A DNA stretch of 64,000 bases from an uncultured Planctomycetota bacterium. GTDB lineage: Bacteria; Planctomycetota; PLA2; JAEUHO01. Positions 15,459 to 62,026 of this stretch are shown piece after piece. The stretch lies in the NCBI GenBank assembly GCA_963752285.1, contig CAVVXN010000005.1:736001-800000 (forward strand), read 5' to 3'. A model generated the notes under the pieces. The model was not told where the DNA came from. It ran no database searches and worked only from the letters and a program-made list of their open reading frames with translations. The stretch's first letter is position 1. Each line of letters starts with the position of its first letter. Both the position numbers and the translations under genes were made by a program.

Positions 15459-17204
15459 CTATCTCTCCCCGGGCGCGGACGCGGGCGGGAACGCGGGCGC
15501 CGCGGGGGACGGCGTCGCGGGCGGGGCCAGCGCGGTCGGCGCCGGCGGCGACTCCGCGGTCGGCGAGCCCGACGGCGCCTCGGGCTCGACCCAGCGTCCG
15601 TCGGACCCGACCTGGAGGATCCCGACGTCGCGGAGCAGGACGAGACGGGCGATCGCGTGGTCCACGAGTGCGCGCGTCAGTGCGTTCCGCGCGATGACGA
15701 GGGCGTCCTCGGCGTCGAGCCGGTCGCGCGTGGTCGCCCGGCTCGCCTCGAGCAGGAGGTCCGTGCTCTCCACCCGCCGTTCCGCCAGGTGCACGCCCTC
15801 GGCCTCGATCCGGTAGCTGTCGCGCGCGCGTTCGAGCTGGCGCAGGGCCTCCCGCACCTGGAGGCGGACCTGGTCCTCGAGCGCCTCCCGGTCGCGACGC
15901 GCGCGCATCGCGTCGATCGTCGCGTGTCGGAACGCGTTCCGCTCGGCCGTGCGTTCGAGCGGGAGGTCGATCGTCGGGCCCGCGAACGCCTCGATGTCCG
16001 CGTTCGAGAGCGACTGACGCGAACCAGGTTCTCGCTGGAGGAAGGCCTGGACCTCCAGGTTCGCCCCGGGGCCCAGCTGGTTCGCGGCGACGAGGACCCT
16101 GCGCATGGCGTCCTCCTCGCGGCCGTTCGCGTTCTCGAGGTCGAGCCGCCGCGCCAGCGCCGTCTCGACGGCGGTGGCGCGCTCCACCGGCACGGCACGC
16201 GGGCCCTCGGAGCGGAGCCTCTCGAGGGCGTCCTCCGGGATCTCGACGTCGGCGTCCACCTGGATGCCGAGGGTCTCCTTCATCTCGTCGAGCGCGGTCT
16301 CGTACGCCGTGCGCGCCGCGAGCCGGCGGTTCTCCGCGACGAGAAGGTCCTGCCTCGTCTGGTCCACCTCGAAGTCGGCGAGGCGGCCCGCGCCCGTCGC
16401 GCCGTACGCCTCCTGCCGGGCGAGGAGGCGGCGCAGGCTCTCGTACGTCAGGTCTTCGTTCTTCCACGTGTCGCGCGCCTCGAGGAGGCGGTAGTACGAC
16501 GACACCACGTCTACCGTGAACGACTGCTGGAACCGCGCGTACGAGCGGAGGGCGTAGAGCACGTCCCGCTCGGCCTGCGTCAACGGCTCGCGCGCGTACC
16601 AGCCGGCGCCGCGCGCCATGGGGAGCAGGAGGTCGAGGCTCAGGAGCGTGCGCGCGGGCTCGAACGGATCGCCGCTCGCGAGACTCGCGAGGAATCCCGA
16701 CGCGAGGTCCACGATCAGGCGACCGCCGGTGCTGAAGTTGCGCGTCGCGGTGAGGTCGACCGTTCCCTGCGGCGTGGTGTCGTTTCGGTTGATCCGGGTG
16801 CCCGCCCCGAGCGAGAGGCCGGCGAGGGGGTTCGTGAGGTCGTTCCGGACGCCCGTCAGGTCGAGCGCGACGAGGTACACGTCCTCGCGTTGACGGAGGT
16901 AGTCGCGCGAGGCGGCCGCGGCGAGCGCGAGGGCGTCCTCCAGGGTGAGCCGAAAGGTGCGGGACTCCCGCCGCGCGCAGGCGAGGCGGTCCGCGGCGTC
17001 CACGTCGAGGCGTCCCGCGACCTCGGGCACGCGGGCGCGCGTCGAGGCGAGCGCCGCGTAGACCTCGCGGTCGGCGCCCTCCTTCGTGAACCGCGCGCAG
17101 GCGCCCCCGCCGACGGCGAGCCACCCGACGAGGAGGAGGAGGGAGCGCGCCAGGGCCCGTGCCGGGCGGCGGCCCGCGCCCTCGGCCGGCTTCGCCGGGG
17201 TCAT
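15459..17204 (-). CDS. TolC family outer-membrane efflux protein (probable lipoprotein)
   Basis: Signal ending GGGAC, LTLEDAL.LA, helical repeats (V...YY.LL; AL..RLDL; LDAE..L..A.NA...A..DH), and position at the head of the adaptor/ABC operon. Confidence 0.9.
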   Translation of the reverse strand: MTPAKPAEGAGRRPARALARSLLLLVGWLAVGGGACARFTKEGADREVYAALASTRARVPEVAGRLDVDAADRLACARRESRTFRLTLEDALALAAAASRDYLRQREDVYLVALDLTGVRNDLTNPLAGLSLGAGTRINRNDTTPQGTVDLTATRNFSTGGRLIVDLASGFLASLASGDPFEPARTLLSLDLLLPMARGAGWYAREPLTQAERDVLYALRSYARFQQSFTVDVVSSYYRLLEARDTWKNEDLTYESLRRLLARQEAYGATGAGRLADFEVDQTRQDLLVAENRRLAARTAYETALDEMKETLGIQVDADVEIPEDALERLRSEGPRAVPVERATAVETALARRLDLENANGREEDAMRRVLVAANQLGPGANLEVQAFLQREPGSRQSLSNADIEAFAGPTIDLPLERTAERNAFRHATIDAMRARRDREALEDQVRLQVREALRQLERARDSYRIEAEGVHLAERRVESTDLLLEASRATTRDRLDAEDALVIARNALTRALVDHAIARLVLLRDVGILQVGSDGRWVEPEAPSGSPTAESPPAPTALAPPATPSPAAPAFPPASAPGER

Positions 17205-17470
17205 CCGACGAGCCCGCGGTGGACGAGCAGGGCGGGGCGGGACGCGGACTCCGGGCGGACGAAGAAGTGGCGGCCCGTGAGCCGGCGGCCCTCGCCCTCC
17301 GGCACGACGATGCCCTCGCCGTCGGGTGCCTTCTCGTCGGGGCCGGTGGCGAACCGGACGCCGCCCTCGATCGCCCGCACGACGACCGAGGGCTCCTTCC
17401 GCGCGTCGGGCCGGCCGCCGAGATACGTCCAGCCGTCCGTCTTCCTGAGCCTCAGCGCCATCTGCTCCAC
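17201..17470 (-). CDS. Small hypothetical protein (89 aa), first gene of the TolC/adaptor/ABC operon
   Basis: GGAGG 7 nt before the GTG, a TAGAGT -10-like element upstream, stop codon overlapping the TolC ATG (ATGA), globular-looking composition. Confidence 0.65.
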   Translation of the reverse strand: MEQMALRLRKTDGWTYLGGRPDARKEPSVVVRAIEGGVRFATGPDEKAPDGEGIVVPEGEGRRLTGRHFFVRPESASRPALLVHRGLVG

Positions 17471-17796
17471 GGCGTAACCTCCGCGCGGCGCGACTCTACC
17501 CGCCTCGCGCCGCCGGGAGCATCAAGCGTCGATCGGCTGTGACGGAGTCGTGACGAACGGGCGGCGACGCGGGACGCTATGGGACCTTGGCGGCGCGTAT
17601 CCGGCGTGTTCCGGGCCTCGGGATGCAACCCACGTGCGCTCGACGGGAGTACGCTCTGGGGGTCCGCGAGAGGTTCGGCGAGGAGGTCAGAGAGAGTCGG
17701 CTCGCCGAACGTCCACGGGAGATTGTTTGCCAAGGGCGATGCCCTGCCCTACATCTGGGCGTTTGGGGGGCACCCCAATCAGGAGGTAGGTCTGCC

Positions 17797-18819
17797 ATGT
17801 CGAAGCATTCGTTCGTGGAGAGCGGGGGCATCCTCTTCGCCGTCGCGCTGGGTGTGCTCCTCTCCGGTTGCTGCAGCCCGTGCGGCGATCCCTGCGCGCC
17901 GGCGCCGTGCGCCGCGCCCTGCGCTACGCCTTGCGCGACGCCCTGCGCCACCCCGTGCGCGGGCGTGGTGCCGACCGACATCCCGCCCGAGGCCAAGCCC
18001 GGTGAGGCGTGGTGCCGGGTGTGGGTCCCGCCGACGTACGACAACGTCGAAGAGCAGGTCTGCGTGTGCCCGGCCTCGTGCGACCGCAAGTGGGTCGAGC
18101 CCGTGTACGAGGAGAGGACGAAGACCGTCTGCGTGAAGCCCGAGCAGAAGATCTGCGTACCCGAGCCTGCGGTCTACGAGACCCAGCAGGAGCAGGTCTG
18201 CGTGTGCCCGGAGCAGGTGGTCAAGCACCCCGTTCCGGCCGTCTACGAGACCGTGCAGGAGCAGGTGATGACGTGCCCCGCGCGCACCGAGTGGCGCCGC
18301 GTGGACTGCACGCCCGAGCAGCTCGCCGCGGGCGAGAAGCAGGGCGACTGCTGGATGCTCGTCGAGGTCCCGCCCGTGTACGAGAACCGCTGCAAGCAGG
18401 TCTGCACGCAGCCGGCGACGTGCACCGAGGAGACGATCCCGGCGAAGTACGAGACCCGTTGCAAGCAGGTCTGCACGAAGCCCGCCGCCACCCACCAGGA
18501 GACCGTCCCCGCGCAGTACGAGGAGGTCACCGAGCGCGTCTGCACGCAGCCTGGTTACTGGCAGGAGCTGCCGGTCGCCGCGAAGTACGAGACGCGCACG
18601 AAGCCCGTGTGCAAGGCCCCCGGCCACTGGGAGTGGCGCCGCAACCAGGCGTGTGAGGTCCCGCAGGGCCAGCCCGCCGCGGGGATGGCGCCCGCGCCGG
18701 CGACGCCGGAGGCCGCTCTGTCCGACACGGGTCCCGAGCCCGAGGCGGCTCCGGCGCCCGAGGCCGGTTCCGAGGAGCCCGCGGTGCCCGAGGACATGAT
18801 GGGTGGGGACGCCCACTAG
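17797..18819 (+). CDS. Cys/Pro-rich lipoprotein A: OmcA-like CxxP N-terminus plus eight 23-aa repeats
   Basis: AGGAGG RBS, lipobox LSG|C, CCSPCGDPCAPAPCAAPC(ATPC)3, PEAKPGEAWCRVWVP, repeats PAxYETxxxxVCxxPxxxxxxxV. 28 Cys in 340 aa by hand count. Confidence 0.9.
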   Translation: MSKHSFVESGGILFAVALGVLLSGCCSPCGDPCAPAPCAAPCATPCATPCATPCAGVVPTDIPPEAKPGEAWCRVWVPPTYDNVEEQVCVCPASCDRKWVEPVYEERTKTVCVKPEQKICVPEPAVYETQQEQVCVCPEQVVKHPVPAVYETVQEQVMTCPARTEWRRVDCTPEQLAAGEKQGDCWMLVEVPPVYENRCKQVCTQPATCTEETIPAKYETRCKQVCTKPAATHQETVPAQYEEVTERVCTQPGYWQELPVAAKYETRTKPVCKAPGHWEWRRNQACEVPQGQPAAGMAPAPATPEAALSDTGPEPEAAPAPEAGSEEPAVPEDMMGGDAH

Positions 18820-18831
18820 CCCGACGCCCTG

Positions 18832-18906
18832 CCTCGTGGGCGGGCTCGTCCCGCCCACGAGGTGAAGCGCTGCCGACGGCCCCCTCGCGGGGCCGTCGGT
18901 CGTTTC
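18832..18906 (+). terminator. Tandem hairpins / intrinsic terminator after lipoprotein A
   Basis: 13-bp stem CCTCGTGGGCGGG/CCCGCCCACGAGG (18832-18862), then an 11-bp stem CCGACGGCCCC/GGGGCCGTCGG (18873-18899) followed by TCGTTTC. Confidence 0.7.
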
Positions 18907-18933
18907 GGGGGGCCGTCGCGGTAGGGTGGGGGC

Positions 18934-20277
18934 GTGTCGCGCGCGCTCCTCGTCGGGACCCTGCTCCTCCTTCTCGGGGCGGCGCTCCGCGCCGGCGACG
19001 AGCCGCCGCGGGTCGAGGAAGCGCTCCAGAAGCGCATCAACGAGGCGATCGAGCGCGGCACCGGGTGGCTCGTCTCGAAGCAGCGCAAGCGCGACGGGTC
19101 GTACCCGGGACTCGCGGAGCCGATGCCGCCGGGGCACTTCGACGCGATGGACGTGGGGCTCGACGCCCTGGTCGTCCTGACCCTCGCGCACTCCGGCGTG
19201 GATCCCCACGACGACGCCATCCGGAAGTGCCTCGACTTCTGCCGCTTCGAGTACTCGGGCGGCAAGGGATCGTGGAACCTCAAGTCCAGCGGCAACCTGA
19301 TGGTCTACGTCGCGTCCACGCTCGTTCTCGCGCTCCTGGCCGTCCACGCGCCCGAGGCGCAGAACGTCGTCGCGAAGCGGGATCGGTACGGGGTGCCCGT
19401 GCCGCCCAAGCCCGTGCACTGCAAGCTCCCCTCCGCCGACCGGCACTGGATCGAGGAGCTGGTCGAGTTCCTGGTGAAGGCGCAGGTGAAGCCCGCCGGG
19501 GGGTGGCGGTACCCCGGCAACCCGGTGGACTCGGTCCCGGCCGACACCGACCTCTCCAACACGCAGTACGCGCTGCTCGCGCTCGAGGCGGCGGCTCGCT
19601 GCGGGATCGACGCGCCGGACGAGACCTGGAAGCTCGCCGCGGAGTACCTCCTCCGCGAGCAGGACGAGGACGGCCTCGAGGTCGAGCTCCTGGTGCCGAG
19701 CCCGACCTGGACGACGGGCAGCCCCGAGGCGGAGCGCTTCGTCGGCGGGGGGACGTGGAAGACGCGCGGGTGGTGCTACCTGCCCGGGCACCCCGCGCTC
19801 GCGACGGGCTCGATGACCTGCGCCGGCGTCACGGGCCTGGCGATGGTGAAGGAGCGGCTGTGGGCCCGTGGGCACCTGGACCCGGAGCTGTCCAAGCGGA
19901 TCGACCGCGGCCTGCTCGACGGCCTCGCGTGGCTGCAGGAGCACTTCACCGTCGAGGACAACCCGGACCCGCCGAACCAGTGGCACTACTACTACCTCTA
20001 CGGCCTGGAGCGCACGGGGGCCAAGACGGGCGTGGTCTGGATGGGGAGGCACGACTGGTACCGCGAGGGCGCGCTCCACCTCCTCGCGGCGCAGACGAAG
20101 GAAGGCGGGTGGCGGTCCGCGGTGGGGCAGGACCAGCCCGCGGACTCGAGCGAGTCGGAGATCACGCAGACCTGCTTCGCGCTCCTGTTCCTCGAGCGCG
20201 CGACGCAGCGTCCCCCGATCCCCCTCGTCCCGCCGGTGGTCACGGGCGGGGGAGAGGCGCCCGCGGAGGGGCGATAG
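18934..20277 (+). CDS. Exported prenyltransferase/squalene-oxidase-repeat (alpha/alpha barrel) protein
   Basis: Signal peptide, AI.RG..WL...Q..DGS, AQ....GGWRY, DLSNTQYA.LAL, GSMTCAG, YYYLYGLER.G, Q...GGW, T.FALLFL motifs. Confidence 0.85.
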   Translation: MSRALLVGTLLLLLGAALRAGDEPPRVEEALQKRINEAIERGTGWLVSKQRKRDGSYPGLAEPMPPGHFDAMDVGLDALVVLTLAHSGVDPHDDAIRKCLDFCRFEYSGGKGSWNLKSSGNLMVYVASTLVLALLAVHAPEAQNVVAKRDRYGVPVPPKPVHCKLPSADRHWIEELVEFLVKAQVKPAGGWRYPGNPVDSVPADTDLSNTQYALLALEAAARCGIDAPDETWKLAAEYLLREQDEDGLEVELLVPSPTWTTGSPEAERFVGGGTWKTRGWCYLPGHPALATGSMTCAGVTGLAMVKERLWARGHLDPELSKRIDRGLLDGLAWLQEHFTVEDNPDPPNQWHYYYLYGLERTGAKTGVVWMGRHDWYREGALHLLAAQTKEGGWRSAVGQDQPADSSESEITQTCFALLFLERATQRPPIPLVPPVVTGGGEAPAEGR

Positions 20278-20386
20278 CCCGGGAGCGCGGGGCGATCGGA
20301 CAAAACGGGCCCCGCATCCTCCGGTGAGGTGGGTGCGCTCCGTAGAATTCGCGTCGCAAGGGTCCGCCCACCTGGAGACCGAGCCC

Positions 20387-22444
20387 ATGTCGGATCGCCC
20401 CGAGCCCGAGAGCCCCGCTTCGAGATCCGCGGGCGACGACCTCGCCACCCGCTCGATCAACACGGTCCGGACGCTGGCGATGGACGCCGTCGAGCAGGCG
20501 AAGTCGGGGCACCCCGGCACGCCGATGGCCCTCGCGCCGCTCGCGTACGCGTTGTTCGCCAAGGTGCTCGCGTACGACCCCGGGCGGCCCGACTGGCCCG
20601 ATCGCGACCGCTTCGTCCTCTCGTGCGGGCACGCGAGCCTCCTGCTCTACTCGATGCTCTACCTCACGGGGTACGGGCTCGAGCTCGAGGAGATCGAGTC
20701 GTTTCGACAGTGGGGCTCGCGGACGCCGGGCCACCCCGAGCACGGCATCGCGCCGGGCATCGAGACGACGACGGGTCCGCTCGGGCAGGGTTTCGCGAAC
20801 GCGGTGGGGATGGCGCTCGCCGAGCGGATGCTCGCGGCGCGCTACAACCGTCCGGACCACGAGGTGATCGACCACCGTACGTGGGCCATCGCGAGCGACG
20901 GCGACCTGATGGAGGGGATCAGCCAGGAGGCGGCGAGCCTGGCCGGGCACCTCGGTCTCGCGAAGCTCTGCGTGTTCTACGACGACAACCACATCACGAT
21001 CGACGGCTCGACGGACCTCGCGTTCACGGAAGACGTCGAGACGCGATTCCTCGGGTACGGGTGGCGCGTGATCCGTCTCGGCGACACCGCCACGCCCGCC
21101 GACTACGTCGCCGCGGCGGAGCGCGCCCGGGCCGAAGCGGCGTGCCCGACGCTGGTGATCTGCCGCACGCACATCGGGTACGGCGCGCCCAACAAGCACG
21201 ACACGGCCGCCGCGCACGGCTCGCCGCTCGGAGCCGACGAGGTCCGCGCGGCGAAGAAGAACCTCGGCTGGCCCGAGGACGCGAAGTTTTTTGTCCCGCC
21301 CGACGTGCTCGAGCACATGCGCGAGCTCGGGCGTCGCGGCGCGAAGACCCGGGCGGCGTGGGAAGCACGGCGCGCCGCGCACCGCGACGCGCACCCCGAG
21401 CTGGCGGCGCAGCTCGACCGGGTGCTGGCGGGGCGCCTCCCCGTGTCCCTCGACGACGCCTGGCCGAGCTTCGAGGCGGGGCGGGCGGTGGCCACGCGAA
21501 AGCGATCGCACGCGGTGCTGAACGCGATCAAGGACGCGCTGCCCGAACTCGTCGGGGGGTCGGCGGACCTGACGGTCTCGAACGGTACGGAGCTCGCCGA
21601 CGCGGGGGCGGTCAGCGCGGACTCGTACGAGGGACGGAACCTCCACTTCGGCGTGCGCGAGCACGCGATGGGCGGGATCCTGAACGGGATGGCGCTCCAC
21701 GGCGGTCTCCGGCCGTACGGCGGGACGTTCCTCGTGTTCAGCGACTACATGCGGCCTTCGATCCGGCTCGCGGCGCTGATGGGTGTGAACGTCACGTACG
21801 TGTTCACGCACGACTCCATCGGGCTCGGTGAGGACGGCCCGACGCACCAGCCGATCGAGCAGCTCGCGGCCCTCCGCGCGATCCCCGACCTTCGCGTGAT
21901 CCGACCGGCCGACGGCGCGGAGACGACCGAGGCGTGGCGCGTGGCCGTCGAACGAGGCGGACCCACGGCGCTCGTACTCACGCGACAGAAGGTCCCCGAG
22001 CTCGCGCGGGGCGACGGCGCGCTCGCGTCGGCGTCGGGTCTCGCACGCGGCGCGTACGTCCTCAACCCGGAGGTCGAAGACCCCGAGGTCTCGTTCCTGG
22101 CGACCGGTTCCGAGGTGCAGCACGCGCTCGCCGCGGCGCGAATCCTGTCGGACGAGGGCGTCCGCGCGCGGGTCGTCTCGTTCCCGTGCTGGTCGCTCTT
22201 CGAGGAGCGGCCCCGTGAGGAGCAGGAGCGCGTTCTCGGCCCGGACGCCGTGCGCGTGGCCGTCGAGGCGGCCGCGTCGTTCGGGTGGCACCGATGGGTC
22301 GGGTCGCGCGGCGCGCTCGTTACGATCGACCGGTTCGGGGCGTCCGCGCCGGGCGATCGCATGATGCGGGAGATGGGGTTCACGGCGGAGAACGTGGCCC
22401 GCGTCGCGCGCGAGGCGCTCGCCGCCGCCCGCGCGCCGTCCTGA
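20387..22444 (+). CDS. tkt: Transketolase
   Basis: SGHPGTPM, RDRFVLSCGH, TTGPLGQG, SDGDLMEG...DDN TPP motif, FGVREHAM, THDSIGLGEDGPTHQP. Confidence 0.98.
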   Translation: MSDRPEPESPASRSAGDDLATRSINTVRTLAMDAVEQAKSGHPGTPMALAPLAYALFAKVLAYDPGRPDWPDRDRFVLSCGHASLLLYSMLYLTGYGLELEEIESFRQWGSRTPGHPEHGIAPGIETTTGPLGQGFANAVGMALAERMLAARYNRPDHEVIDHRTWAIASDGDLMEGISQEAASLAGHLGLAKLCVFYDDNHITIDGSTDLAFTEDVETRFLGYGWRVIRLGDTATPADYVAAAERARAEAACPTLVICRTHIGYGAPNKHDTAAAHGSPLGADEVRAAKKNLGWPEDAKFFVPPDVLEHMRELGRRGAKTRAAWEARRAAHRDAHPELAAQLDRVLAGRLPVSLDDAWPSFEAGRAVATRKRSHAVLNAIKDALPELVGGSADLTVSNGTELADAGAVSADSYEGRNLHFGVREHAMGGILNGMALHGGLRPYGGTFLVFSDYMRPSIRLAALMGVNVTYVFTHDSIGLGEDGPTHQPIEQLAALRAIPDLRVIRPADGAETTEAWRVAVERGGPTALVLTRQKVPELARGDGALASASGLARGAYVLNPEVEDPEVSFLATGSEVQHALAAARILSDEGVRARVVSFPCWSLFEERPREEQERVLGPDAVRVAVEAAASFGWHRWVGSRGALVTIDRFGASAPGDRMMREMGFTAENVARVAREALAAARAPS

Positions 22445-22519
22445 GCGCGGCGCCCGACCGCGCGCGGGGGCGGGCCCCCCTCGTACGTAGAATCGCCCGC
22501 TTCATCGTGGGGAGTCGCC

Positions 22520-23380
22520 ATGTCGTCCACTCGTTCGTCGGTAGCGAGGATGCTCGCCCTGAAGGCGTCCGTCGTGTTCGCGCTCGCCCTCTTCGCCGCG
22601 GCGCCCTCGGCGCGGGCGTCGGGCTACGACCTGAACGGCCGTCTCGCGCCGGAGCTCACGTTTCCCGACGGGATGAACGGGATCTCCCGGAGCACGTCGC
22701 TCTCGTCGTACCGCGGGCGGGTCGTCTACCTGAAGTTCGTGCTCCGGGACTGCCCGATCTGTCGCGGCGAGCTCCCGCGCGTCCAGGACCTCTACGAGCG
22801 GTGGGGCGGCAGCGGGTTGGCGGTCGTGGTCGTCGTCCACCAGTACCGCCCCGCCGAGATCCAGCCGTTCCTCGATCAGTTCGGCTACTCGTTCCCCATC
22901 GGGTGCGACCTCGACGGCTCCCTGGCGCAGCGGTACGGCGTGGGACACCGTCCGGCCGACTACCTGATCGGCGTGGACGGCCGCGTGAAGGCGAGCAACG
23001 CGGTCTCGGACGCGGAGATCCGGACCGAGCTCGCGCACTACCGCATGGCCCGGATCGGGGAGGTGCCGCCCGAGCTCGACGCCTTGAAGGACGCCGTGTG
23101 GCGCTGGGACTACGGGACCGCGCTCCGGGCCGGGGAGCCCGTGGCCGAGCGGCCGGAGGCGTCCGCGTCGGTGAAACAGGTGGTCGAGCGGACGCGGGCG
23201 CTCGCGAAGGAGGAGCTCGACGCGAGGGTTGCGTACGCCGACGTGCTCGTCCGACGCGGCCGGACCGAGGTCGCGAGGACCTTCTACGAGCGGGTGGTGG
23301 ACTACTACAAGGGAACCAGCCTGGAGACCCCCGCCGCGGACGCGAGAGCGCGCTTCCTCGCGTCGCTGGGGACGCGATGA
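22520..23380 (+). CDS. Exported TlpA/redoxin-family thiol-disulfide oxidoreductase with helical C-terminal extension
   Basis: Signal peptide ending ARA, APEL.F.D, SLSSYRGRVVYLKF...CPIC (CxxC), YGV..RP..YLIG.DGRV. Confidence 0.85.
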   Translation: MSSTRSSVARMLALKASVVFALALFAAAPSARASGYDLNGRLAPELTFPDGMNGISRSTSLSSYRGRVVYLKFVLRDCPICRGELPRVQDLYERWGGSGLAVVVVVHQYRPAEIQPFLDQFGYSFPIGCDLDGSLAQRYGVGHRPADYLIGVDGRVKASNAVSDAEIRTELAHYRMARIGEVPPELDALKDAVWRWDYGTALRAGEPVAERPEASASVKQVVERTRALAKEELDARVAYADVLVRRGRTEVARTFYERVVDYYKGTSLETPAADARARFLASLGTR

Positions 23381-23569
23381 CGGAGCGGTGACCCGACGCT
23401 CCCGGCCGAGAGGGCAGTACGCCCCGAACGCCCCTTTCGAGGCCATCTTCCCTGCCCTCTCGTGAACCGGTCGCGAGGCCGATCGGGAGGGGGACGGTAT
23501 GCTCACGCACGAGGAGCCGGCGAGGGCCGGGCGTCGTCGCCCGACCGGCTCCGACCAGGGAGGAGGTCC

Positions 23570-24742
23570 ATGGTGACCAGGACCACGCTCGAGACATCGT
23601 CGATCGACCGCGTCGCGGGCCGGAGCCGGCGCGCGTGGCCGCTCGCGCTCGTCGTGCTCGCGCTCGTCGCGACGGGCTGCGCCACGGGCCACGCGATGGC
23701 GCCGGCGCCGATGGCCGCTCCCGCGACGGCCGCGCTGCCCCCGCCCACGGACCGACCGCCGGAGGCCAAGCCGGGCGAGGCGTGGTGTCGCGTGTGGGTG
23801 CCCGGCGAGATGGGCGTGATCCAGGAGACCGTGTGCGTGAAGCCGCCGTGCAAGCACACGGTGACGATCCCGGCCAAGTACGGCAGGCGCCCGAAGCTCG
23901 TCTGCGTCGCCGAGGCGCAGCTCGGCGAGCGCGATACGCCCGCCCGGTGGGCGACGAAGAAGCGTCCCGTGATGGTCTGCCCGCCGCGGGAAGAGCTCCG
24001 CCGCGTGGACTGCCCCCCCGCCGACCTCGCGCCGGGCGAGGTGCAGTGCGAGTGCTGGACGAAGGTCCAGCACCCGGCCGTCTGGGGTGAGGAGGACTGC
24101 CCCGTCTGCGTGTCGCCGGAGCGGACCTGCCTCGAGTACAAGCCCGCCGAGTACAAGGTCGTCCAAGAGCGCTTCCTGCTCGAGCCGGCGCACACCGAGG
24201 AGGTGTGCGAGCCGGCGGTGTTCACGACGCGGTGCCGCCAGGCCCCGAGGTGCGGGGGCCACTGGGAGTGGCGCCGAAACGTCGCGTGCGAGGTCCCGAC
24301 CGAGACGGCGACCGCCCCTCCGATGCCCGCTCCCGCGCCGGTACGGCTCAAGGCGTTGCAGGTGGAGATGCAGGACCGCGCGGAGTCCGGCGCGGAGGCC
24401 GGGCAGTTCTCCGTGGGCGACATCGTGCGCTACGACCTCGTCGTCGCGAACGACGAGGGCTCGGAGGGACTGGACGGCCTGAAGGTCGACTTCGCGTTGC
24501 CGCCCGAGCTCGAGTTCGTGAAGGGCGGCGGCTACGGCGTGACCGTCAGCGGCTCGGGTCAGCAGGCGACCTCCGCGAGCTTCGACGTTCCCGTCGGCCA
24601 GTCCGTGACGATCTCCGTGGAGTGCCGCGTCCTGTCGGCGCCGCCTTCCAGCCTCGTCCAGACGAAGGCGACCGTGCGCGACGCCACGGGCACCGAGCTG
24701 GCCGAGGAGACGGAGAGCACGACCCTCAAGCCGAAGCAGTGA
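23570..24742 (+). CDS. Cys-rich lipoprotein B: paralog of A (six 23-aa repeats) plus C-terminal DUF11/OmcB-like domain
   Basis: AGGAGG RBS, lipobox ATG|C. Shares PPEAKPGEAWCRVWVP, RRVDC and GHWEWRRN.ACEVP with gene A. C-terminal VGD.VRY.L.V.N....L.V...LP.ELEFV (DUF11-like) ending ETESTTL. Confidence 0.88.
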   Translation: MVTRTTLETSSIDRVAGRSRRAWPLALVVLALVATGCATGHAMAPAPMAAPATAALPPPTDRPPEAKPGEAWCRVWVPGEMGVIQETVCVKPPCKHTVTIPAKYGRRPKLVCVAEAQLGERDTPARWATKKRPVMVCPPREELRRVDCPPADLAPGEVQCECWTKVQHPAVWGEEDCPVCVSPERTCLEYKPAEYKVVQERFLLEPAHTEEVCEPAVFTTRCRQAPRCGGHWEWRRNVACEVPTETATAPPMPAPAPVRLKALQVEMQDRAESGAEAGQFSVGDIVRYDLVVANDEGSEGLDGLKVDFALPPELEFVKGGGYGVTVSGSGQQATSASFDVPVGQSVTISVECRVLSAPPSSLVQTKATVRDATGTELAEETESTTLKPKQ

Positions 24743-25551
24743 GCGGCGCCGGCGGGGGGGCGCGTCGTCGCGCGGTCCTCGTCGCGTCGGTCCTCCTCGC
24801 GGGCGCGGGGTCCGCGTGCGTACCGCTTCGGACGGGCCCGCGCGGGGGTGCCGCCAGGCGCGTTCTCCCCGCGGCCGTGATCCTGCCCGTGCGCGGGCAC
24901 GCGCAGCGTCACGCCCTCTCCTGCGAGTCCCGGTCGGCGGTGGACCTCCTCGCCGCGTACGGGATCGAGGTCGAGGAGGACAGCTTCCTCGAAGGGCTGC
25001 CTCGTTCGGAGAACCCGGAGCGCGGCTTCGTCGGCGACGTGGACGGCCCGGCCGGTCGCCTCCCGCCCGACGGCTACGGGGTGTACGAGGGACCGATCGC
25101 GCAACGGATCCGGTACTTCGGTCTCGAGGCGGAGGCGGTGCGTGGCCGCGACCTCGACTGGCTCCGCGGCCGGCTGGCGGAGGGCCGTCCGTCGATCGTC
25201 TGGGCGACGGCCGGGCTCGAGCCCGCGACGCCGAGGCGCCTCCAGACCTCGTACGGCGAGACGTTCACGGCGGTCTTGTACGAGCACACCTACCTGCTCG
25301 TCGGGTACCGGCGCGGCTCGGTCCTGCTCGTGGACGCGGGCACCGGCGAGCGGACCGAGGAGGACGAGGCAAGGTTCGAAGGGGCGTGGGCCGCTCTGGG
25401 CCGTCGCGCCGTCGTGCCGCGCGACCCGCTCGGGACGCCGCGTTCGGTGGGCTCCGAACGTCGATCCCGGAGGACGCCTTGTGCATTGGATCGACATGCG
25501 GCACCATGCGCGACATGTTCGGGCGGTCGGGAGGATGCCCAAAACCCCTGA
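24739..25551 (+). CDS. C39-like papain-fold cysteine peptidase (C39_2/YvpB-like), probably exported
   Basis: GTGA overlap with lipoprotein B. Q....SCE (catalytic Cys), NPERGFVG, GYGVY, G.P.IVW, EHTYLLVGY (His), LVD (Asp). Hydrophobic N-terminus ending SAC. Confidence 0.88.
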   Translation: MSGAGGGARRRAVLVASVLLAGAGSACVPLRTGPRGGAARRVLPAAVILPVRGHAQRHALSCESRSAVDLLAAYGIEVEEDSFLEGLPRSENPERGFVGDVDGPAGRLPPDGYGVYEGPIAQRIRYFGLEAEAVRGRDLDWLRGRLAEGRPSIVWATAGLEPATPRRLQTSYGETFTAVLYEHTYLLVGYRRGSVLLVDAGTGERTEEDEARFEGAWAALGRRAVVPRDPLGTPRSVGSERRSRRTPCALDRHAAPCATCSGGREDAQNP

Positions 25552-25593
25552 TGCGCGGGGTTCGGGCGGACCCGCCTCCCCGGGGCCGGGCCG

Positions 25594-25608
25594 TGGCACC
25601 CGTCGTGC
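25594..25608 (+). promoter_or_regulatory. Putative sigma54 (-24/-12) promoter
   Basis: TGGCAC-CCGTC-GTGC with exact GG-N10-GC spacing, intergenic, 67 nt before ATG 25676. Confidence 0.6.
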
Positions 25609-25675
25609 GACCGCCCCTGGCGAAGGCGAGCCACGCCGAGATCGTCGGCAGGCCGCCCTGGACGCGGAGGGATCC

Positions 25676-28600
25676 ATGCTGAAGCCGACCACCTGGCTCC
25701 TGGCGGCGCTGCTGCTGCCCTTGTTCTGGGCCGGCTCCGGCGCCCCGGCGGGCGCAGAGGGGACCGTCGTTCCGACCGCCGAGGGGGGGTGGCGTGGCGT
25801 GCCGGACCTGGCCGAGGACAGCGGCCAGTTCCTCCTCGTCTCCGGCGTCGAGAACGCCGGCATCCCGGGCACGGGCCCCGGGGAGGACCCGGGCCAGCTC
25901 GTGCTCGCCTCGATCTTCGACGAGAACCCGTCGGGCCCCGACGTCGAGCTCGCGATCTTCGACGGCGACACGTCCGGCATCTGGGACCAGCGTGACGACC
26001 GGCCGCCGGTGTCCCCCGAGCTCGGCGTCCGCAAGCCCTTCGACTCGGTCTACCGGGTCTACCCCGACCCGACCGGCGGCGTGGCGCGCGCTCTCGCGCG
26101 TGGCAGCCGTGCGACCACGGACCCGGTTACCCCGGTGGACCGCGACGGCATACCCGAGGTGGACGACGGCGGCATGCCGCTCCCGGCGGTGTACCCGGTC
26201 CTCACCACGAACGCCCTGGGCTCGACGTTCAGCGGCACGAACGCGGCGTGGATCGAGCTGATGAACCAAGAGGGCGACGAGTCCGCCCGCATCGCGGGGA
26301 GCTCGACGTTCGTCTACACGCTTCGCGTGACGCTCGAGGACGGACCGAACGGAGCGCTGAACGGCTTCGAGGTGAACGGCTTCAAGGTCGCCATGACCGG
26401 CCGGCCCCGGCTTCCGAACGGGACGCTCCTGGGCTTCGTCGGCGGCGTGGTGGACATCCGGACGATCCAGGGTTTCGCGCAGTCCGAGGACCCGCTCCCC
26501 GGCTCGACGTATCGTCCGCCCTCGCGCAACGACACGCTCACGAACCACTACGGGGGCGAGTTCGACTTTTCCTTCGACGTGGGCACGGTCTGCGAGGACG
26601 TCGGCTTCGCGGAGGGCGACGCCGATTGGAACGCTCCGATCTCTCCGGACTCGATGTTCGGCGACCAGAACCCGACCGGCATCCCGCCGGACGACGGCGG
26701 TCGGTACGTGTTCGGGACCCAGGTCATCGACAACACGAGCCTGAAGATCCCGCTGCCCGCCGCCGACGAAGCGCTCGGCCGCCACGGGCTCCTCTGGGAG
26801 ATCGTGGACCCGAGTGGCTCGGTCCGGCTCTCGTCCGACGACTCGCCGCTCGGCCATCCGTCGTACTCCGGCGCGATCCAGTCGCCCGTGGCGCCCGTGG
26901 GCGACCCCTTCCAGACGACGACGCTGTCCAAGGACGTGCTGAACAGCCTGAGCGGCACGTGGACGTGGCGCTGGCGCGGCGTGGACAGCCGCAACGCGAT
27001 CTGGGTGAAGGCCCGGGGCGGCTTCGGGCCGAGCCTGGGTGGACCCGTCGTCTCGGGCCGCGTCTGGTGCGACGACGGCAACGGCATCTTCGACGAGGGC
27101 GAGACGCCGCTCGCCGGGGCGACCCTCGTGTTCGAGCCGGTCCCCGCCAGCGACTTCGAGGTGCCGATCATGACCGGCGCCGACGGGACCTGGCAGACCC
27201 ACTCGCTCGGAGCGGGCACGTGGCGTCTGCTCTCGGTGACGCCGGCTCCCGGGTCGTCCAGCGCGTTCGACCCCGCGACGCCGCTCCCGCGGACGTTCGA
27301 GGTGGACTCCTGCGAGGGCGCGACCTTGGACGTCCCCGGCATGTGCGGCTCGGCGCAGGGCCGCATCGCGGGCCGCGTCTGGTGCGACGAGCTCGAGAAC
27401 GGCGTCTTCGACGAGGGTGTGGACATACCGCACGCCGGCGTGACGGTGACGATCACGCCCTCGGGGTCGGCCACGCCGATCGCCACGCTGACGACCTCGG
27501 CCGACGGCACGTACCAGTCCGGACTGCTCGACGCGGGCGACTACACCGTGAGCGTCGATCCGGCCGACCCGGCGCTGGGCGGTCCCACGCCGCTTTCCCC
27601 GACATCGGTGACCGCCACGGTGGTGGCCGAGCAGACGACGAACGTGGACTTCTGGTTCCGCTGCCGGTCCGAGGTGTCCGGTCACGTGATTCGCGAGCAC
27701 CTGACATGCGACGGGGCGTGGGAGAAGGACGTGGAGTCGGGCATCCCGGGCGTGGAGGTCGTGCTGACGCTCCTCGACGACCAGGGCCAGCCGACCCCGA
27801 CCTCCCGCACCGCGACGACGGACGCGACGGGGTACTACGAGTTCACGGACGTCGTGCCCGGCACGTACCGGCTGACGGTGGACGGCGACCAGGCGAACGT
27901 GGTGCGTCTCGCCGCGAACTCCGGGACGACGATCGGGCCGCTCGAGGTGGTCTCGTTGATGAGCTACCCCGACAACGACTTCTTCTTCTGCCCGGGGAAG
28001 ATCCAGGTCAAGGTCGTCAAGAAGGCCCACGGCGAGGCCTGCCAAAACGTGATCGACGTGGGTGACACCCCGATCGCCGGGGTGACCGTGCACCTGTCCG
28101 GAGCGAGCGCCACGACGACGCCCGGTCCGTTCACGGCCACGACCGACGCCACGGGCGTCGCAACCTTCACCGACCTCGACGCCGACATGTACTCCATGTC
28201 GATCGCGGGGTCCCAGACGGTCCTCGTATCGCTGCAGCCCGCCGACGGCGCGACGGCGGCCACCGTGACGCTGCCTGCGGGCGGTCTCGTGGTGATCCCG
28301 AGCGTCTGGTGCGAGGAGACGTGCTCGATCACGGGCACGGTGTTCCGCGAGGCGGAGTGCGTGCCGTGGTGGACGTACGCCGGCCAGGGCATCGGCGGGG
28401 TGACGGTCGAGCTCCGACGGGCCGCCGACGACCCGAGCGGCGCCGCGTACGCGACGACGACGACCGACGCCACGGGCTACTACGCCTTCCTCGACATCCC
28501 GACCGGCGCGTACGTGGTCAGCGTTCCGGACGGACAGGCGGCCCTGGCCGACCTCACGGCCACCACCGACACGTCGGTGGCGGTCCGGCAGTGCGGCTCC

Positions 28601-31375
28601 GGGGTGGACTTCCGGTACGGGACCGCGGGCCTCCGGGTCCACGTCGTGCTGGACGTGTCCTGCTGCGGGTGCGCCGACGGCGGCCTCGTCGCGACGGTCA
28701 AGCTGGAGAAGCTCGACGCCCCGGGCCAGGGCCGGAGCCTCGAGCTCATGACGGGTCCCGACGGGGTCCTGACCTTCCCGAGGCCCGACCAGCCCGCGCT
28801 CTTGCCCGGCCGCTACCGCGTGTCGGTGTCGGCGACCGGGCCGGTAGTCGCGCACGGAGACCTCGTGAAGGAGGTCACCCTCGGCGTCTGCCGCCCGGTG
28901 GACGTGACCTTCGAGTTCTGCGGCACGGCGAGCCTCGTCGGCCGCGTCATCCGCGAGACGGTCGACTGCAACGGCATCGTGGAAGCCGGCGAAGCCGGCA
29001 TCCCCGGCGTCGCGGTGCGGCTCGTCCCCGTGTCGCCGGCCGGGGCGGCCCGCGTCGCGACGACGGACGACACGGGCGCCTATTCCTTCCTGAACCTGCC
29101 GCGCGGCTCCTACGTGGTGCAGGTGGACGGCGGGCAGGCGACGCTCGTGGACCTGAACCCGAGCTCGCTCACACAGGTCCCCGTGACCCTCGTCCCGCCG
29201 GACGAAGGACAGGTGGACTTCACGTTCTGCGCGCCGGGGCGCGTCTGCGGGACGGTCTACCGCGAGCCGCTCGGCGACTGCGACGGCACGCTCGGTGACG
29301 GCGACGAGCCGCTCAGCGGCGTGGTGGTGTCGCTGATCCCGGTCGACCCGAGCGGGCCCACGCTCCAGCGTGTCACCGACGAGCGGGGCGGCTACTGCTT
29401 CACGAAGCTCGATCCGGGTCGCTACGAGGTCTACGTGGACGGCTCGCAGCCGATCCTCGTGAGCCTCTCCGGGACCACGGCGGGCCGCGTGGCCGTCGAT
29501 CTCGGGCCGAGCGGGGACGAGACGGTGAACTTCGGCTACGCGCCGCAGTCCATCACCGGCTACGTCTTCCGCGAGCCGCAGGGGCAGTGCGACGGCGTCT
29601 ACGAGGAGGACGTGGACAGCCCGATCCCGGGCGTCTCCGTCACCCTGATCAAGCTCGACACGCCGTACCGCGGTCTCTCCCGGGTCGCGGTGACGAACGC
29701 GAACGGGCTCTACCGGTTCCTCGACATCCCCTCCGGCCGCTACGAGGTGGCGGTCACCGGCGGGGTTCCGGCGGACCTCACGCCGAGCACCCCCGAGGTC
29801 GTCACGCAGCCGCTGCCGGTCTGCCGCCACCGTCGGGTGGACTTCGGCTACTGTCCGCCCGAGCTCACCGAGATCTGCGGCACGGTGTTCCGCCAGCCGT
29901 GGAACCACTGTGACGAGGTCTTCGACGACGGCGACACGGGCGTGCCCGGCGTCACCGTTCGTCTGGAGAAGACGGACGGGGCCGACGCCGGCTGGATCCG
30001 CGAAGAGGCGACCGACGAGAACGGGCACTACTGCTTCGAGAACCTCCCGGCGGGGACCTACCTGGTCCGCGTGCCGGGGGGACAGCCCCAGCTCGTGAAC
30101 CTCACGCCGAGCACGCCGGAGCAGATCCAGGTGGTGACGCAGGTGGGCGAGGACCACGACGGCGTGGACTTCGGCTACTGCCCGCCCTGCCCGCGGGTGC
30201 CCTGCTGTGACGGCGACCTGCACGAGGTGGTGGTCGAGACGCGCTTCTGGCTGGACCCGTGCGAGAGCTGGTACGACGTGTACGCGTACCTGAAGGACGG
30301 GTGCGGCGACTGCGCGACGGAGATCGACTACGCCGGCATCTACTTCCACGGGGGCTTCCCCGGGGCCGTGACCGGCTACAACGACGTCCTCACGCTCGAG
30401 AACGTCTGGCGCGAGGGCGGATGGGTGTACGTCCGGCTCCGCCTGACGGCGCAGGGAGCGGCGTTCCCGCGCGGGTTCTTCGGGAAGGGGACCCGGTCGG
30501 TGATCGTGACCCTGGGCGACCAGAAGCGCCAGGGCTGCGTGGAGCTCCGGTGCGAGAAGGTGCGACCGGGCTCCTGGTTCACGTCGTCCGACGCGTGCTA
30601 CCTGCCCGACTGCCCGCCGGCGAGAGACGCCTGCGTGCTCGCGTCGGGTAGCTGGGACGACCGGTCGCCGTGCTGCAGCGCCGACTACCGCGTGCTCGAC
30701 ACGTACTCCTGGGAGAACTGGCAGACGTGCGACGGGAAGCCGGAGTGCAAGCAGCAGAGCGAGTCGTGCAAGGCCGGCTACAACACGGTCGAGATCGAGA
30801 TCGACTACTGGGTCAAGAACCACGGCGACCACCACGTGTTCGACGCGGGGTTCTGGTCGTGGGGCAAGACCGAGATCGACCACGTGGGGCTGTCGTTCGA
30901 CGGGACGTCGTGGGAGGGCTCCAAGAAGAGCGACCACGGCCTCGCGACCCTGCTCTACGTGCGTCGGATCGACACCGGGGACGCCGCCGACCTGTGGCGG
31001 GCCCGGTTCCTCGTCCGCTCGTGCGACCGCGCCGACGGGAATCCCGGCGTGCTGCCCGAGCAGCTCGAGATCCGGTCCAAGGTGGACGAGGGCGAGCACG
31101 ACTACTGGCTCGACCTGAACTACGCGAGCAACGCGTGCCTCGAGACGGGGCCGATCCTGTGGAACGGCGAGTTCACCGGGGTCAACCTGATCCGCTGGGT
31201 GAGCGTCCTCGACGCGGCATGGTGCCCGCCCGTCCCGTGCGACGGGTCGTGCGACACGCCCTGCTCGACCTGCCCGCCCGAGACGCCGCCCCCGTCGAAC
31301 GGCAAGCCCGCGCCCAAGACGCCGCCGCAGCCCGTGTGCAAGCCCACGCCGAAGAAGGGCCACGGCCGCCGCTGA
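25676..31375 (+). CDS. Very large exported protein (~1,899 aa) with ten Cys-containing SdrD-B/Cna-B-like repeats and a Cys-rich C-terminus
   Basis: GGAGG RBS and signal peptide. Repeats of the form I.G.V(W/F)....C.G..D.GE..I.GV.V.L....TTD..G.Y.F..L..G.Y.V....DFG(Y/F)C at about 27046-30181. Ends in a Pro/Cys/Lys-rich tail. Confidence 0.9.
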   Translation: MLKPTTWLLAALLLPLFWAGSGAPAGAEGTVVPTAEGGWRGVPDLAEDSGQFLLVSGVENAGIPGTGPGEDPGQLVLASIFDENPSGPDVELAIFDGDTSGIWDQRDDRPPVSPELGVRKPFDSVYRVYPDPTGGVARALARGSRATTDPVTPVDRDGIPEVDDGGMPLPAVYPVLTTNALGSTFSGTNAAWIELMNQEGDESARIAGSSTFVYTLRVTLEDGPNGALNGFEVNGFKVAMTGRPRLPNGTLLGFVGGVVDIRTIQGFAQSEDPLPGSTYRPPSRNDTLTNHYGGEFDFSFDVGTVCEDVGFAEGDADWNAPISPDSMFGDQNPTGIPPDDGGRYVFGTQVIDNTSLKIPLPAADEALGRHGLLWEIVDPSGSVRLSSDDSPLGHPSYSGAIQSPVAPVGDPFQTTTLSKDVLNSLSGTWTWRWRGVDSRNAIWVKARGGFGPSLGGPVVSGRVWCDDGNGIFDEGETPLAGATLVFEPVPASDFEVPIMTGADGTWQTHSLGAGTWRLLSVTPAPGSSSAFDPATPLPRTFEVDSCEGATLDVPGMCGSAQGRIAGRVWCDELENGVFDEGVDIPHAGVTVTITPSGSATPIATLTTSADGTYQSGLLDAGDYTVSVDPADPALGGPTPLSPTSVTATVVAEQTTNVDFWFRCRSEVSGHVIREHLTCDGAWEKDVESGIPGVEVVLTLLDDQGQPTPTSRTATTDATGYYEFTDVVPGTYRLTVDGDQANVVRLAANSGTTIGPLEVVSLMSYPDNDFFFCPGKIQVKVVKKAHGEACQNVIDVGDTPIAGVTVHLSGASATTTPGPFTATTDATGVATFTDLDADMYSMSIAGSQTVLVSLQPADGATAATVTLPAGGLVVIPSVWCEETCSITGTVFREAECVPWWTYAGQGIGGVTVELRRAADDPSGAAYATTTTDATGYYAFLDIPTGAYVVSVPDGQAALADLTATTDTSVAVRQCGSGVDFRYGTAGLRVHVVLDVSCCGCADGGLVATVKLEKLDAPGQGRSLELMTGPDGVLTFPRPDQPALLPGRYRVSVSATGPVVAHGDLVKEVTLGVCRPVDVTFEFCGTASLVGRVIRETVDCNGIVEAGEAGIPGVAVRLVPVSPAGAARVATTDDTGAYSFLNLPRGSYVVQVDGGQATLVDLNPSSLTQVPVTLVPPDEGQVDFTFCAPGRVCGTVYREPLGDCDGTLGDGDEPLSGVVVSLIPVDPSGPTLQRVTDERGGYCFTKLDPGRYEVYVDGSQPILVSLSGTTAGRVAVDLGPSGDETVNFGYAPQSITGYVFREPQGQCDGVYEEDVDSPIPGVSVTLIKLDTPYRGLSRVAVTNANGLYRFLDIPSGRYEVAVTGGVPADLTPSTPEVVTQPLPVCRHRRVDFGYCPPELTEICGTVFRQPWNHCDEVFDDGDTGVPGVTVRLEKTDGADAGWIREEATDENGHYCFENLPAGTYLVRVPGGQPQLVNLTPSTPEQIQVVTQVGEDHDGVDFGYCPPCPRVPCCDGDLHEVVVETRFWLDPCESWYDVYAYLKDGCGDCATEIDYAGIYFHGGFPGAVTGYNDVLTLENVWREGGWVYVRLRLTAQGAAFPRGFFGKGTRSVIVTLGDQKRQGCVELRCEKVRPGSWFTSSDACYLPDCPPARDACVLASGSWDDRSPCCSADYRVLDTYSWENWQTCDGKPECKQQSESCKAGYNTVEIEIDYWVKNHGDHHVFDAGFWSWGKTEIDHVGLSFDGTSWEGSKKSDHGLATLLYVRRIDTGDAADLWRARFLVRSCDRADGNPGVLPEQLEIRSKVDEGEHDYWLDLNYASNACLETGPILWNGEFTGVNLIRWVSVLDAAWCPPVPCDGSCDTPCSTCPPETPPPSNGKPAPKTPPQPVCKPTPKKGHGRR

Positions 31376-59806: not shown

Positions 59807-61804
<1,998 letters not shown>

Positions 61805-61937
61805 TCGCCCGCCATTTCACGGCGCGCCGAGGGGCGCGCGGAACGATTCCCGGGACACGAGCCCGCGGCGTGGACCGGGCGGGCGGCGGCCGGGCGCGAG
61901 GAGAACGGGGAGGAGCCCGCGGCGCGCGGCGCGGGGA

Positions 61938-62026
61938 TGGTGCCGAAGGCGGGACTCGAACCCGCAAGACCGGTAAAGGTCACCAGGTCCTGAACCTGGC
62001 GCGTCTGCCAATTCCGCCACTTCGGC
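61938..62026 (-). tRNA. tRNA-Leu (CAG)
   Basis: Acceptor stem GCCGAAG/CTTCGGC plus ACCA, D-loop AATTGGCAGA, anticodon arm CCAGG-TTCAGGA-CCTGG, long variable arm, GGTTCGAGTCC T-loop. Confidence 0.97.

Follow-up and report, generated by a model that had tools for sequence, protein, structure and literature searches.

Does a short run of genes in a Planctomycetota bacterium encode a protein envelope held together by disulfide bonds? The question is raised by the segment 17797..31375 of the window, that is, of the whole stretch of 64,000 nucleotides analysed here (contig CAVVXN010000005.1, positions 736,001 to 800,000, forward strand). A preliminary description had seen in this segment three unusually Cys-rich exported proteins, a redoxin and a C39 peptidase, and had proposed that they form a crosslinked envelope, coat or appendage akin to the OmcA/OmcB layer of chlamydiae.

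The wider issue is how PVC bacteria came to Cys-crosslinked protein walls, the known cases being (i) OmcA and OmcB of the chlamydiae; and (ii) the YTV proteins of the Planctomycetia. OmcB carries an array of DUF11 domains. According to the consulted sections of the cited papers, chlamydiae possess a disulfide-crosslinked outer membrane complex (COMC) of Cys-rich proteins, with OmcA, OmcB and MOMP as its components (PMC6752827, PMC2811131), in which OmcA is a 9 kDa lipoprotein with approximately 15% Cys (PMC1403754, PMC2811131). The same sections report in R. baltica an OmcB homologue without Cys, which is called unexplained (PMC1403754), and disulfide-crosslinked walls have been suggested there for the YTV proteins of Planctomycetia (PMC8567305, PMC12673574).

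The locus and its predicted ribbon proteins

An ORF check of the window confirmed seven ORFs, all of them on the + strand (Table 1; signal peptides and lipoboxes are by-eye readings of the sequence, made without a predictor). A and E are extreme in Cys content, while G belongs to the top 3-4%: the median Cys content is 0.68% in the 2770 ORFs with 100 aa or more that passed a codon filter (from a total of 14767; the filter drops some real genes and every short one), of which 25 reach the level of E (at least 4.3%) and 92 that of G (at least 2.8%). The claim of three unusually Cys-rich exported proteins consequently stands for A and E, and has to be toned down for G. No Rfam element was found within the cluster; elsewhere in the window there are a TPP riboswitch (61714-61806, - strand) and a tRNA (61941-62026, - strand). 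An 89-aa gene with no Pfam match (17204-17470, - strand), located between a TolC-like gene and A, is kept in most mapped relatives.

Table 1. Features of the cluster, in window positions; residue numbers refer to the encoded proteins.
Feature	Position	Strand	Description
RTGAC-N6-RTGAC direct repeat upstream of A	17539..17554	+	Candidate regulator site
A	17797..18819	+	Lipoprotein, 340 aa, 28 Cys (8.2%), LSGC lipobox at residues 22-25; Cys/Pro linker 25-54 (9 Cys), predicted 4+4-unit beta-ribbon 72-286 (19 Cys), acidic Pro-rich tail
B	18934..20277	+	Exported prenyltransferase/cyclase-like repeat protein
tkt	20387..22444	+	Transketolase; housekeeping neighbour
D	22550..23380	+	Exported TlpA/ResA-like CxxC redoxin (CPIC); C-terminal TPR-like helices
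RTGAC-N6-RTGAC direct repeat upstream of E	23377..23392	+	Candidate regulator site; overlaps the stop of D here, clear of the stop in most relatives
GGTAnnnT box	23496..23503	+	Candidate -10 element, about 100 nt downstream of the repeat
E	23570..24742	+	Lipoprotein, 390 aa, 17 Cys (4.3%), ATGC lipobox; predicted 3+3-unit beta-ribbon 72-240 (15 Cys), C-terminal DUF11-like Ig domain ~260-390 (1 Cys)
F	24739..25551	+	Peptidase_C39_2 lipoprotein-like gene; catalytic Cys/His/Asp intact
G	25676..31375	+	Secreted protein, 1899 aa, 54 Cys (2.8%), signal-like N-terminus

A and E are paralogues, 39% identical over 229 residues. The core of both is a repeated 23-residue unit, PAxYETxxEQVCVxPAxxxxxxV, and both are Cys-loaded members of an unnamed family of predicted long beta-hairpins (hereafter, ribbons). 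A has no match in Pfam or NCBIfam. A search with A returned 623 relatives, 120 of which were listed: the best 68 of these 120 are mostly Cys-rich and of similar size, and the lower 52 are mostly Cys-poor and carry PG_binding_1, the Cys-poor ones bearing, among the matches listed, names from Shewanella, Chromatiales, Thiotrichales and Opitutaceae. The PAxYxTV-repeat proteins of Pseudomonadota and Opitutaceae with a C-terminal PG_binding_1 domain (PF01471) share with A and E the ribbon core, at 28-42% identity and with E-values reaching 1e-34, as well as the conserved end cysteines. But while these relatives contain 2-10 Cys and most of them a terminal peptidoglycan-binding domain, A and E contain 17-28 Cys and no such domain (a Pfam search gave no PF01471 match in either). 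No functional study of the PAxYxTV/PG_binding_1 proteins was found in the literature search.

The ribbon family was found in 24/24 genomes of the same planctomycete family and in 0/16 others, and its profile matches 20/201 genomes across the phylum. Versions from other planctomycete families have far fewer Cys, and some paralogues inside the same family are also Cys-poor. A third ribbon paralogue of the genome (C5:2256323-2257027) has 19 Cys and RTGAC-N6-RTGAC upstream; a further one (C3:136986-137960) is without this motif and appears downstream of a tRNA-like sequence. In other planctomycete families, short secreted proteins with VW(V/I)PG motifs (L118, L119, L120) resemble minimal ribbons. 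A literature search, made largely in open-access papers, found no description of the ribbon family, the locus or the upstream motif. For the ribbon core there is neither a Pfam family nor a match in the fold searches, from which novelty of the fold does not follow.

The AlphaFold model of A has two long strand runs with pLDDT >90 at both ends; in its middle, where A has one extra unit per arm compared with most aligned relatives, pLDDT falls to 39-55. In 96 distinct 3+3-unit cores (effective number 49), mutual information peaks on a single antidiagonal, above the parallel diagonals, and the covarying positions on this antidiagonal include Glu/Lys and Glu/Arg pairs. Such covariation would fix an antiparallel hairpin independently of AlphaFold, fold and register being predictions. 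Cys-Cys covariation over 43 cores was dominated by kinship and was set aside. Neither fold searches with the model of A nor a PDB sequence search gave anything significant; among the weak Foldseek matches of A are barrels made of long hairpins, for example the phi29 collar (E 0.013, TM <0.13). If fully extended, the modelled ribbon would be at most about 25 nm long in E and 33 nm in A, and twist would shorten it.

In the covariation register, two pairs of end Cys are placed so that almost every core could be stapled internally. The repeat Cys with the highest conservation (78%, 92% and 93%) face Thr across the hairpin and are mostly partnerless. Altogether, 693 of the 1369 core Cys have no cross-strand Cys inside a generous register; if CC, CxC and CxxC pairs are allowed, 531 of the 1369 are still partnerless and 95 of the 96 cores keep at least two free Cys. 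A can form at most 4 pairs among its 19 core Cys. Odd and even Cys counts are about equally frequent in the cores, in which many Cys positions are variable. From strand alternation, the conserved VC cysteines should all lie on one face. Since about half of the core Cys are unable to pair inside the predicted monomer, and the key ones are conserved, the earlier expectation that these Cys are conserved and not merely intramolecular gains support, and bonds between molecules are likely. This argument, the principal one for bonds between chains, presumes that the hairpin stays extended.

The redoxin, the gene order and the accessory genes

Loci were mapped from most of the 24 relatives, which are labelled as Planctomycetota MAGs, and this gene-neighbourhood mapping confirmed that homologues co-occur and co-localise. 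The redoxin D matches AhpC-TSA (E 2.5e-16) and Redoxin (E 1.6e-13) in Pfam, and keeps its CxxC in the orthologues inspected; its best NCBIfam match is ResA, below cut-off. That a redoxin lies immediately upstream of E, as first described, was borne out as a tight link: of the 20 informative relatives, 19 have D immediately in front of a ribbon gene (outside these 20 are G008, with no D match, and G012, G023 and G024, with D at a contig end), and in 6 of the 19 the ribbon gene behind D is devoid of the DUF11 tail. The 93% complete genome G006 keeps D with neither A nor E at the locus. The D-E pair is intact despite M48/Trk-like insertions upstream, as well as where the A-tkt block sits on another contig (G002, G015). 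D is likely a disulfide isomerase or reductase with the ribbons as presumed substrates. Distant D-like redoxins with one in-frame TGA, possibly selenoproteins or split genes, occur at C5:1821523-1822173 and as matches in many relatives.

Synteny alone is weak evidence here, because the housekeeping neighbours are about equally syntenic: tkt, B and the TolC/MFP efflux, SpoU and Trk genes are about as syntenic as A, and B, a syntenic neighbour, has at least 8 paralogues. B, tkt and F are passengers. F matches PF13529 with 42.7 bits (cut-off 24) and its GTG overlaps the stop of E, so the reported coupling of a C39 peptidase to E exists here; the linkage is, however, not conserved, since F is present in 13/24 relatives and adjoins E only in one of these 13 (G009). 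This neighbourhood rules out F as a maturation enzyme of the Cys-rich proteins. At 4 of 10 other F loci examined, F lies beside ABC-transporter-like genes, in agreement with PMC10318531. A single operon was rejected as well, as a separate upstream element precedes each of the genes A and E; a sigma-70 scan detected no promoter, which is not surprising at 73% GC.

The giant protein G consists of (i) a head (residues 28-455); (ii) 10 SdrD_B-like repeats, as counted by alignment (the Pfam SdrD_B match, E 1e-77, covers 8 stretches); and (iii) a Cys-rich C-terminal region (1502-1888). In 112 repeats from 9 proteins of this type, the Cys occupy fixed Ig-domain columns, two of them with 29 occurrences apiece, which is what an internal pair would give. 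Among the 9 proteins, one is almost Cys-free and two have three Cys per repeat, which may leave room for bonds between repeats or chains. The head, with 24 representatives among 1.84 billion proteins, is lineage-restricted; its model is a low-confidence beta-sandwich (pLDDT 57) whose best match (Z 6.9, rmsd 3.1, 113 aligned) stands among many generic jelly-roll-like folds. LipL32, suggested as a relative of the head by the ESM Atlas (0.89), was not confirmed.

G directly follows E in 8/24 relatives and lies behind it after a 6-kb gap in G015; G001, G005, G009 and G011 have no G at the locus despite intact flanks. First taken for a structural subunit, G turns out to be an optional neighbour with its Cys mostly at fixed Ig-domain positions, probably a variable accessory in the form of a stalked adhesin, which D may help to fold. 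The SdrD_B/DUF11 (CLIPPER) fibrillar adhesins, as presented in the consulted part of their description (bioRxiv 10.1101/2025.04.25.650565), likewise have a signal peptide, a head and a tandem SdrD_B-like stalk, whereas G has stereotyped Cys in its repeats, a lineage-restricted head and no known anchor identified. The tail profile of E matches the CLIPPER structure 9IFR weakly (E 6e-4). Beside tkt in G002, a 3462-residue SdrD-like repeat protein has just 4 Cys (L047:2-10387).

Comparison with known walls, dispersed parts and a shared upstream repeat

A resembles OmcA in its lipobox (LSGC, residues 22-25) but not in size or Cys content (340 aa, 8.2% Cys), and just its 30-residue linker is OmcA-like in composition. 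Chlam_OMP3 gave no match to A and none in the genome at E 0.1, and Chlam_OMP6 none to E or anywhere in the genome; the ribbon core of A and E is unrelated to either. E has a single DUF11-like domain (23.6 bits against a cut-off of 24.6) and not an array, 9 of 20 aligned E members matching DUF11 at E 0.1, and its Cys sit in the ribbon and not in the DUF11 tail, unlike those of OmcB. The initial likening of A and E to OmcA and OmcB was thus abandoned; closer analogues are found elsewhere in the genome.

The OmcA-like analogues are four tandem Cys/Pro-rich lipoproteins of 53-95 aa with 7-17 Cys (C5:1645677-1647238), two of them preceded by RTGAC-N6-RTGAC; the same four-gene set occurs in G001 and G009. 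The 95-aa member matches 12/24 relatives and 0/16 others: in 9 the matches are stand-alone PNPC-repeat lipoproteins, and in 4 they fall on the N-terminal part of A-type proteins, both forms occurring in G019. The linker of A itself resembles this lipoprotein, although both are of low complexity. The OmcB-like analogue is a 780-aa multi-DUF11 lipoprotein with 16 Cys (C2:215648-217987), present in 23/24 relatives, whose last domain is 51% identical to the tail of E and also occurs in a secreted protein with two domains (C5:951551). The 780-aa lipoprotein in turn matches, at 27% (E 5e-19), a multi-DUF11 protein of G038 that has no Cys and is of the kind of the reported R. baltica OmcB homologue, so the suggested link to OmcB is an indirect one; the direct comparison of the tail of E with the G038 domain is weak (7% probability). 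Because these closer analogues are unlinked to the locus, the system would be a dispersed set and not a 13.6-kb stretch.

Mur ligases are present in 25/25 family genomes and in 41/41 genomes searched, and the genome also has transpeptidases, OmpA domains, VKOR and DsbD. A protein wall replacing peptidoglycan is ruled out by the Mur ligases and transpeptidases and, since the host keeps its peptidoglycan genes, any mesh would supplement peptidoglycan. The COMC and the present case share exported Cys-rich structural proteins, a Cys/Pro-repeat lipoprotein, DUF11-type Ig domains, Cys-bearing porins and dedicated thiol oxidoreductases, all in a PVC bacterium. The genome holds genes for all those part types; crosslinking has been shown in chlamydiae. 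Unlike in the COMC, the OmcA-like and OmcB-like genes of the host are unlinked and the peptidoglycan pathway is kept.

The YTV proteins (PF07639), as portrayed in the consulted sources, resemble A and E in being exported, rich in Cys, Val, Thr and Pro, repetitive and two-armed, and the YTV cluster is the nearest named ESM Atlas neighbour of A (cosine 0.84, a lead only). The 23-residue unit and the lipid anchor of A and E set them apart. PF07639 matches 0/25 family genomes, and a profile-profile comparison of the A family with 8 of 10 extracted YTV proteins gave a 13% probability over 9 columns; on these grounds homology of A to YTV was rejected. The weak YTV matches L071 and L072 (family f2) turned out to be large pilin-like proteins that carry a long insertion rich in Tyr, Thr and Val; they are not YTV wall proteins.

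What A and E do share with other envelope genes is a direct repeat upstream. In hand-cut upstream regions, with the own genome included, the core TGAC-N7-TGAC (nearly always RTGAC-N6-RTGAC) is present in 7/14 regions of A and 15/23 of E, that is, 22/37 (mean of 300 shuffles, 0.1), and none was found in the other 15; many orthologues of A and E also have the GGTAnnnT box in front of them. When the 48 cores in the genome are scored with a matrix derived from 20 sites in other genomes, the A and E sites come first and second. The genome contains 30 full sites, against 5-11 for control spacings (non-codon-period), and 19 of the 30 precede a gene with an RBS and a signal-like hydrophobic start, against 6/68 for control spacings.

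A gene was called at 29 of the sites, and 22 of their proteins were scanned for families. Those with a family include (i) a Porin_O_P with 10 Cys; (ii) two secretins; (iii) an OMP barrel; and (iv) a SurA-like protein, in addition to TPR, HEAT and EF-hand proteins and some unrelated genes. Nine motif-bearing proteins have no family, among them two porin-like proteins, the third ribbon paralogue and two tiny Cys-rich lipoproteins. The motif is absent upstream of B, tkt, D, G and the C3 ribbon paralogue, and precedes the multi-DUF11 gene only with a mismatch. Its count exceeds the control spacing in 23/25 family genomes, sometimes narrowly, and an excess is also seen in many genomes outside the planctomycete family. 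This candidate motif suggests co-regulation of A and E with porins, secretins and tiny lipoproteins. The repeat resembles a Pho box, a reading that was rejected: no site within one mismatch was found upstream of either pstS-like gene.

Readings of the locus

The model to which we give an even chance is that A and E are Cys-rich long beta-ribbons, likely lipid-anchored and likely joined by disulfides into a reinforcing mesh, with D as the likely isomerase; the envelope location of A and E and their intermolecular bonds are what we infer. Each 23-residue unit would pair with a unit of the returning strand to give a rod, whose ends would be stapled by two disulfides. The VC cysteines would then be free to link, at intervals of 23 residues, to the ribbon next to them; alternatively, their partners would be the tiny Cys/Pro lipoproteins, the Cys-bearing porins and the multi-DUF11 lipoprotein of the same cell. 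As the PG-binding domain is missing from A and E, the cross-links would take over its holding role, while oxidation would come from VKOR, and D would draw its reducing power from DsbD. Of the crosslinked envelope system originally placed at this locus, what the model retains is the probable ribbon lipoproteins and their redoxin; the other parts are dispersed, and F and the metabolic genes are passengers. The mesh model is weakened by the low confidence in the middle of the A model (pLDDT 39-55), by G006, by the motif being missing in 15/37 regions, in modest excess in several relatives and present outside the family, by the Mur ligases, which leave no missing wall to replace, and by the roughly equal odd and even core Cys counts with their many variable positions.

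An explanation that we consider unlikely, though deserving of weight, is that A and E act as single or small-oligomer struts or spacers in the envelope, as their peptidoglycan-binding relatives would, with no mesh, the extra Cys stabilising a folded-back or paired ribbon or binding metal. The fold works without extra Cys, as the Cys-poor versions in other families and some paralogues indicate; inside the hairpin, partners are available for the Cys of the end staples and for some of the variable ones, and peptidoglycan and OmpA-domain genes are present. Yet the best-conserved repeat Cys have no internal partner in the supported register, and the tiny PNPCNQ-repeat lipoproteins that share the motif resemble cross-linkers and are hardly large enough to fold. 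It is improbable that the ribbons oligomerise laterally into a long, disulfide-locked beta-barrel, a tube or fibre that would serve as conduit in the periplasm or as surface appendage, with G as its tip or stalk adhesin. This reading would suit the long-hairpin barrels among the weak Foldseek matches, the secretins with the same motif and the 8/24 relatives in which G directly follows E; those matches are not significant, however, and reflect just a long hairpin, and G has no motif upstream and is absent from the locus in four relatives. Quite improbable is a mere conservation of gene order, in which the Cys-rich genes are unrelated in their jobs and D serves other substrates (e.g. cytochrome c maturation). 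The similar synteny of tkt, B, efflux and Trk genes, the ResA match of D, the retention of D without E in G006 and the demonstrably passenger status of F speak for it; against it, the A and E paralogues share a position-conserved motif which B, tkt and D lack, and D-E is intact where genes were inserted upstream or the block was split.

Carried one step further, and with correspondingly more doubt, the mesh model becomes a disulfide corset in the manner of chlamydiae on top of peptidoglycan: lipoprotein ribbons of 25-33 nm that exchanged a PG-binding domain for a Cys zipper and share one regulator with the OmcA-like micro-lipoproteins, the Cys-bearing porins and the secretins, and the OmcB-like lipoprotein alongside. 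This more specific proposal is tentative. If true, PVC bacteria would have a third solution next to the COMC and the YTV walls, and the COMC parts list would not be confined to chlamydiae. A planctomycete family that keeps its peptidoglycan genes together with OmcA-like, Cys-bearing OmcB-like and ribbon proteins offers an intermediate state. In the literature search, no precedent was found for the ribbon family, the putative Cys zipper and the upstream motif, a crosslinked envelope as such being of a kind known mainly from chlamydiae. In any case, the Cys-poor ribbon relatives are common, unstudied peptidoglycan-binding proteins of cultivable bacteria, in which the rod model is testable.

The motif also yields a short candidate list of envelope proteins for the lineage. 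The genome has seven OmpR-type regulators, one of them beside motif-bearing porin-like genes: at C3:153180-157871 it lies directly upstream of two such genes, which have no Pfam match, and is a candidate regulator. Just after another OmpR-type regulator gene, four CTGAC units follow each other with 11-bp spacing (C4:209754-209790).
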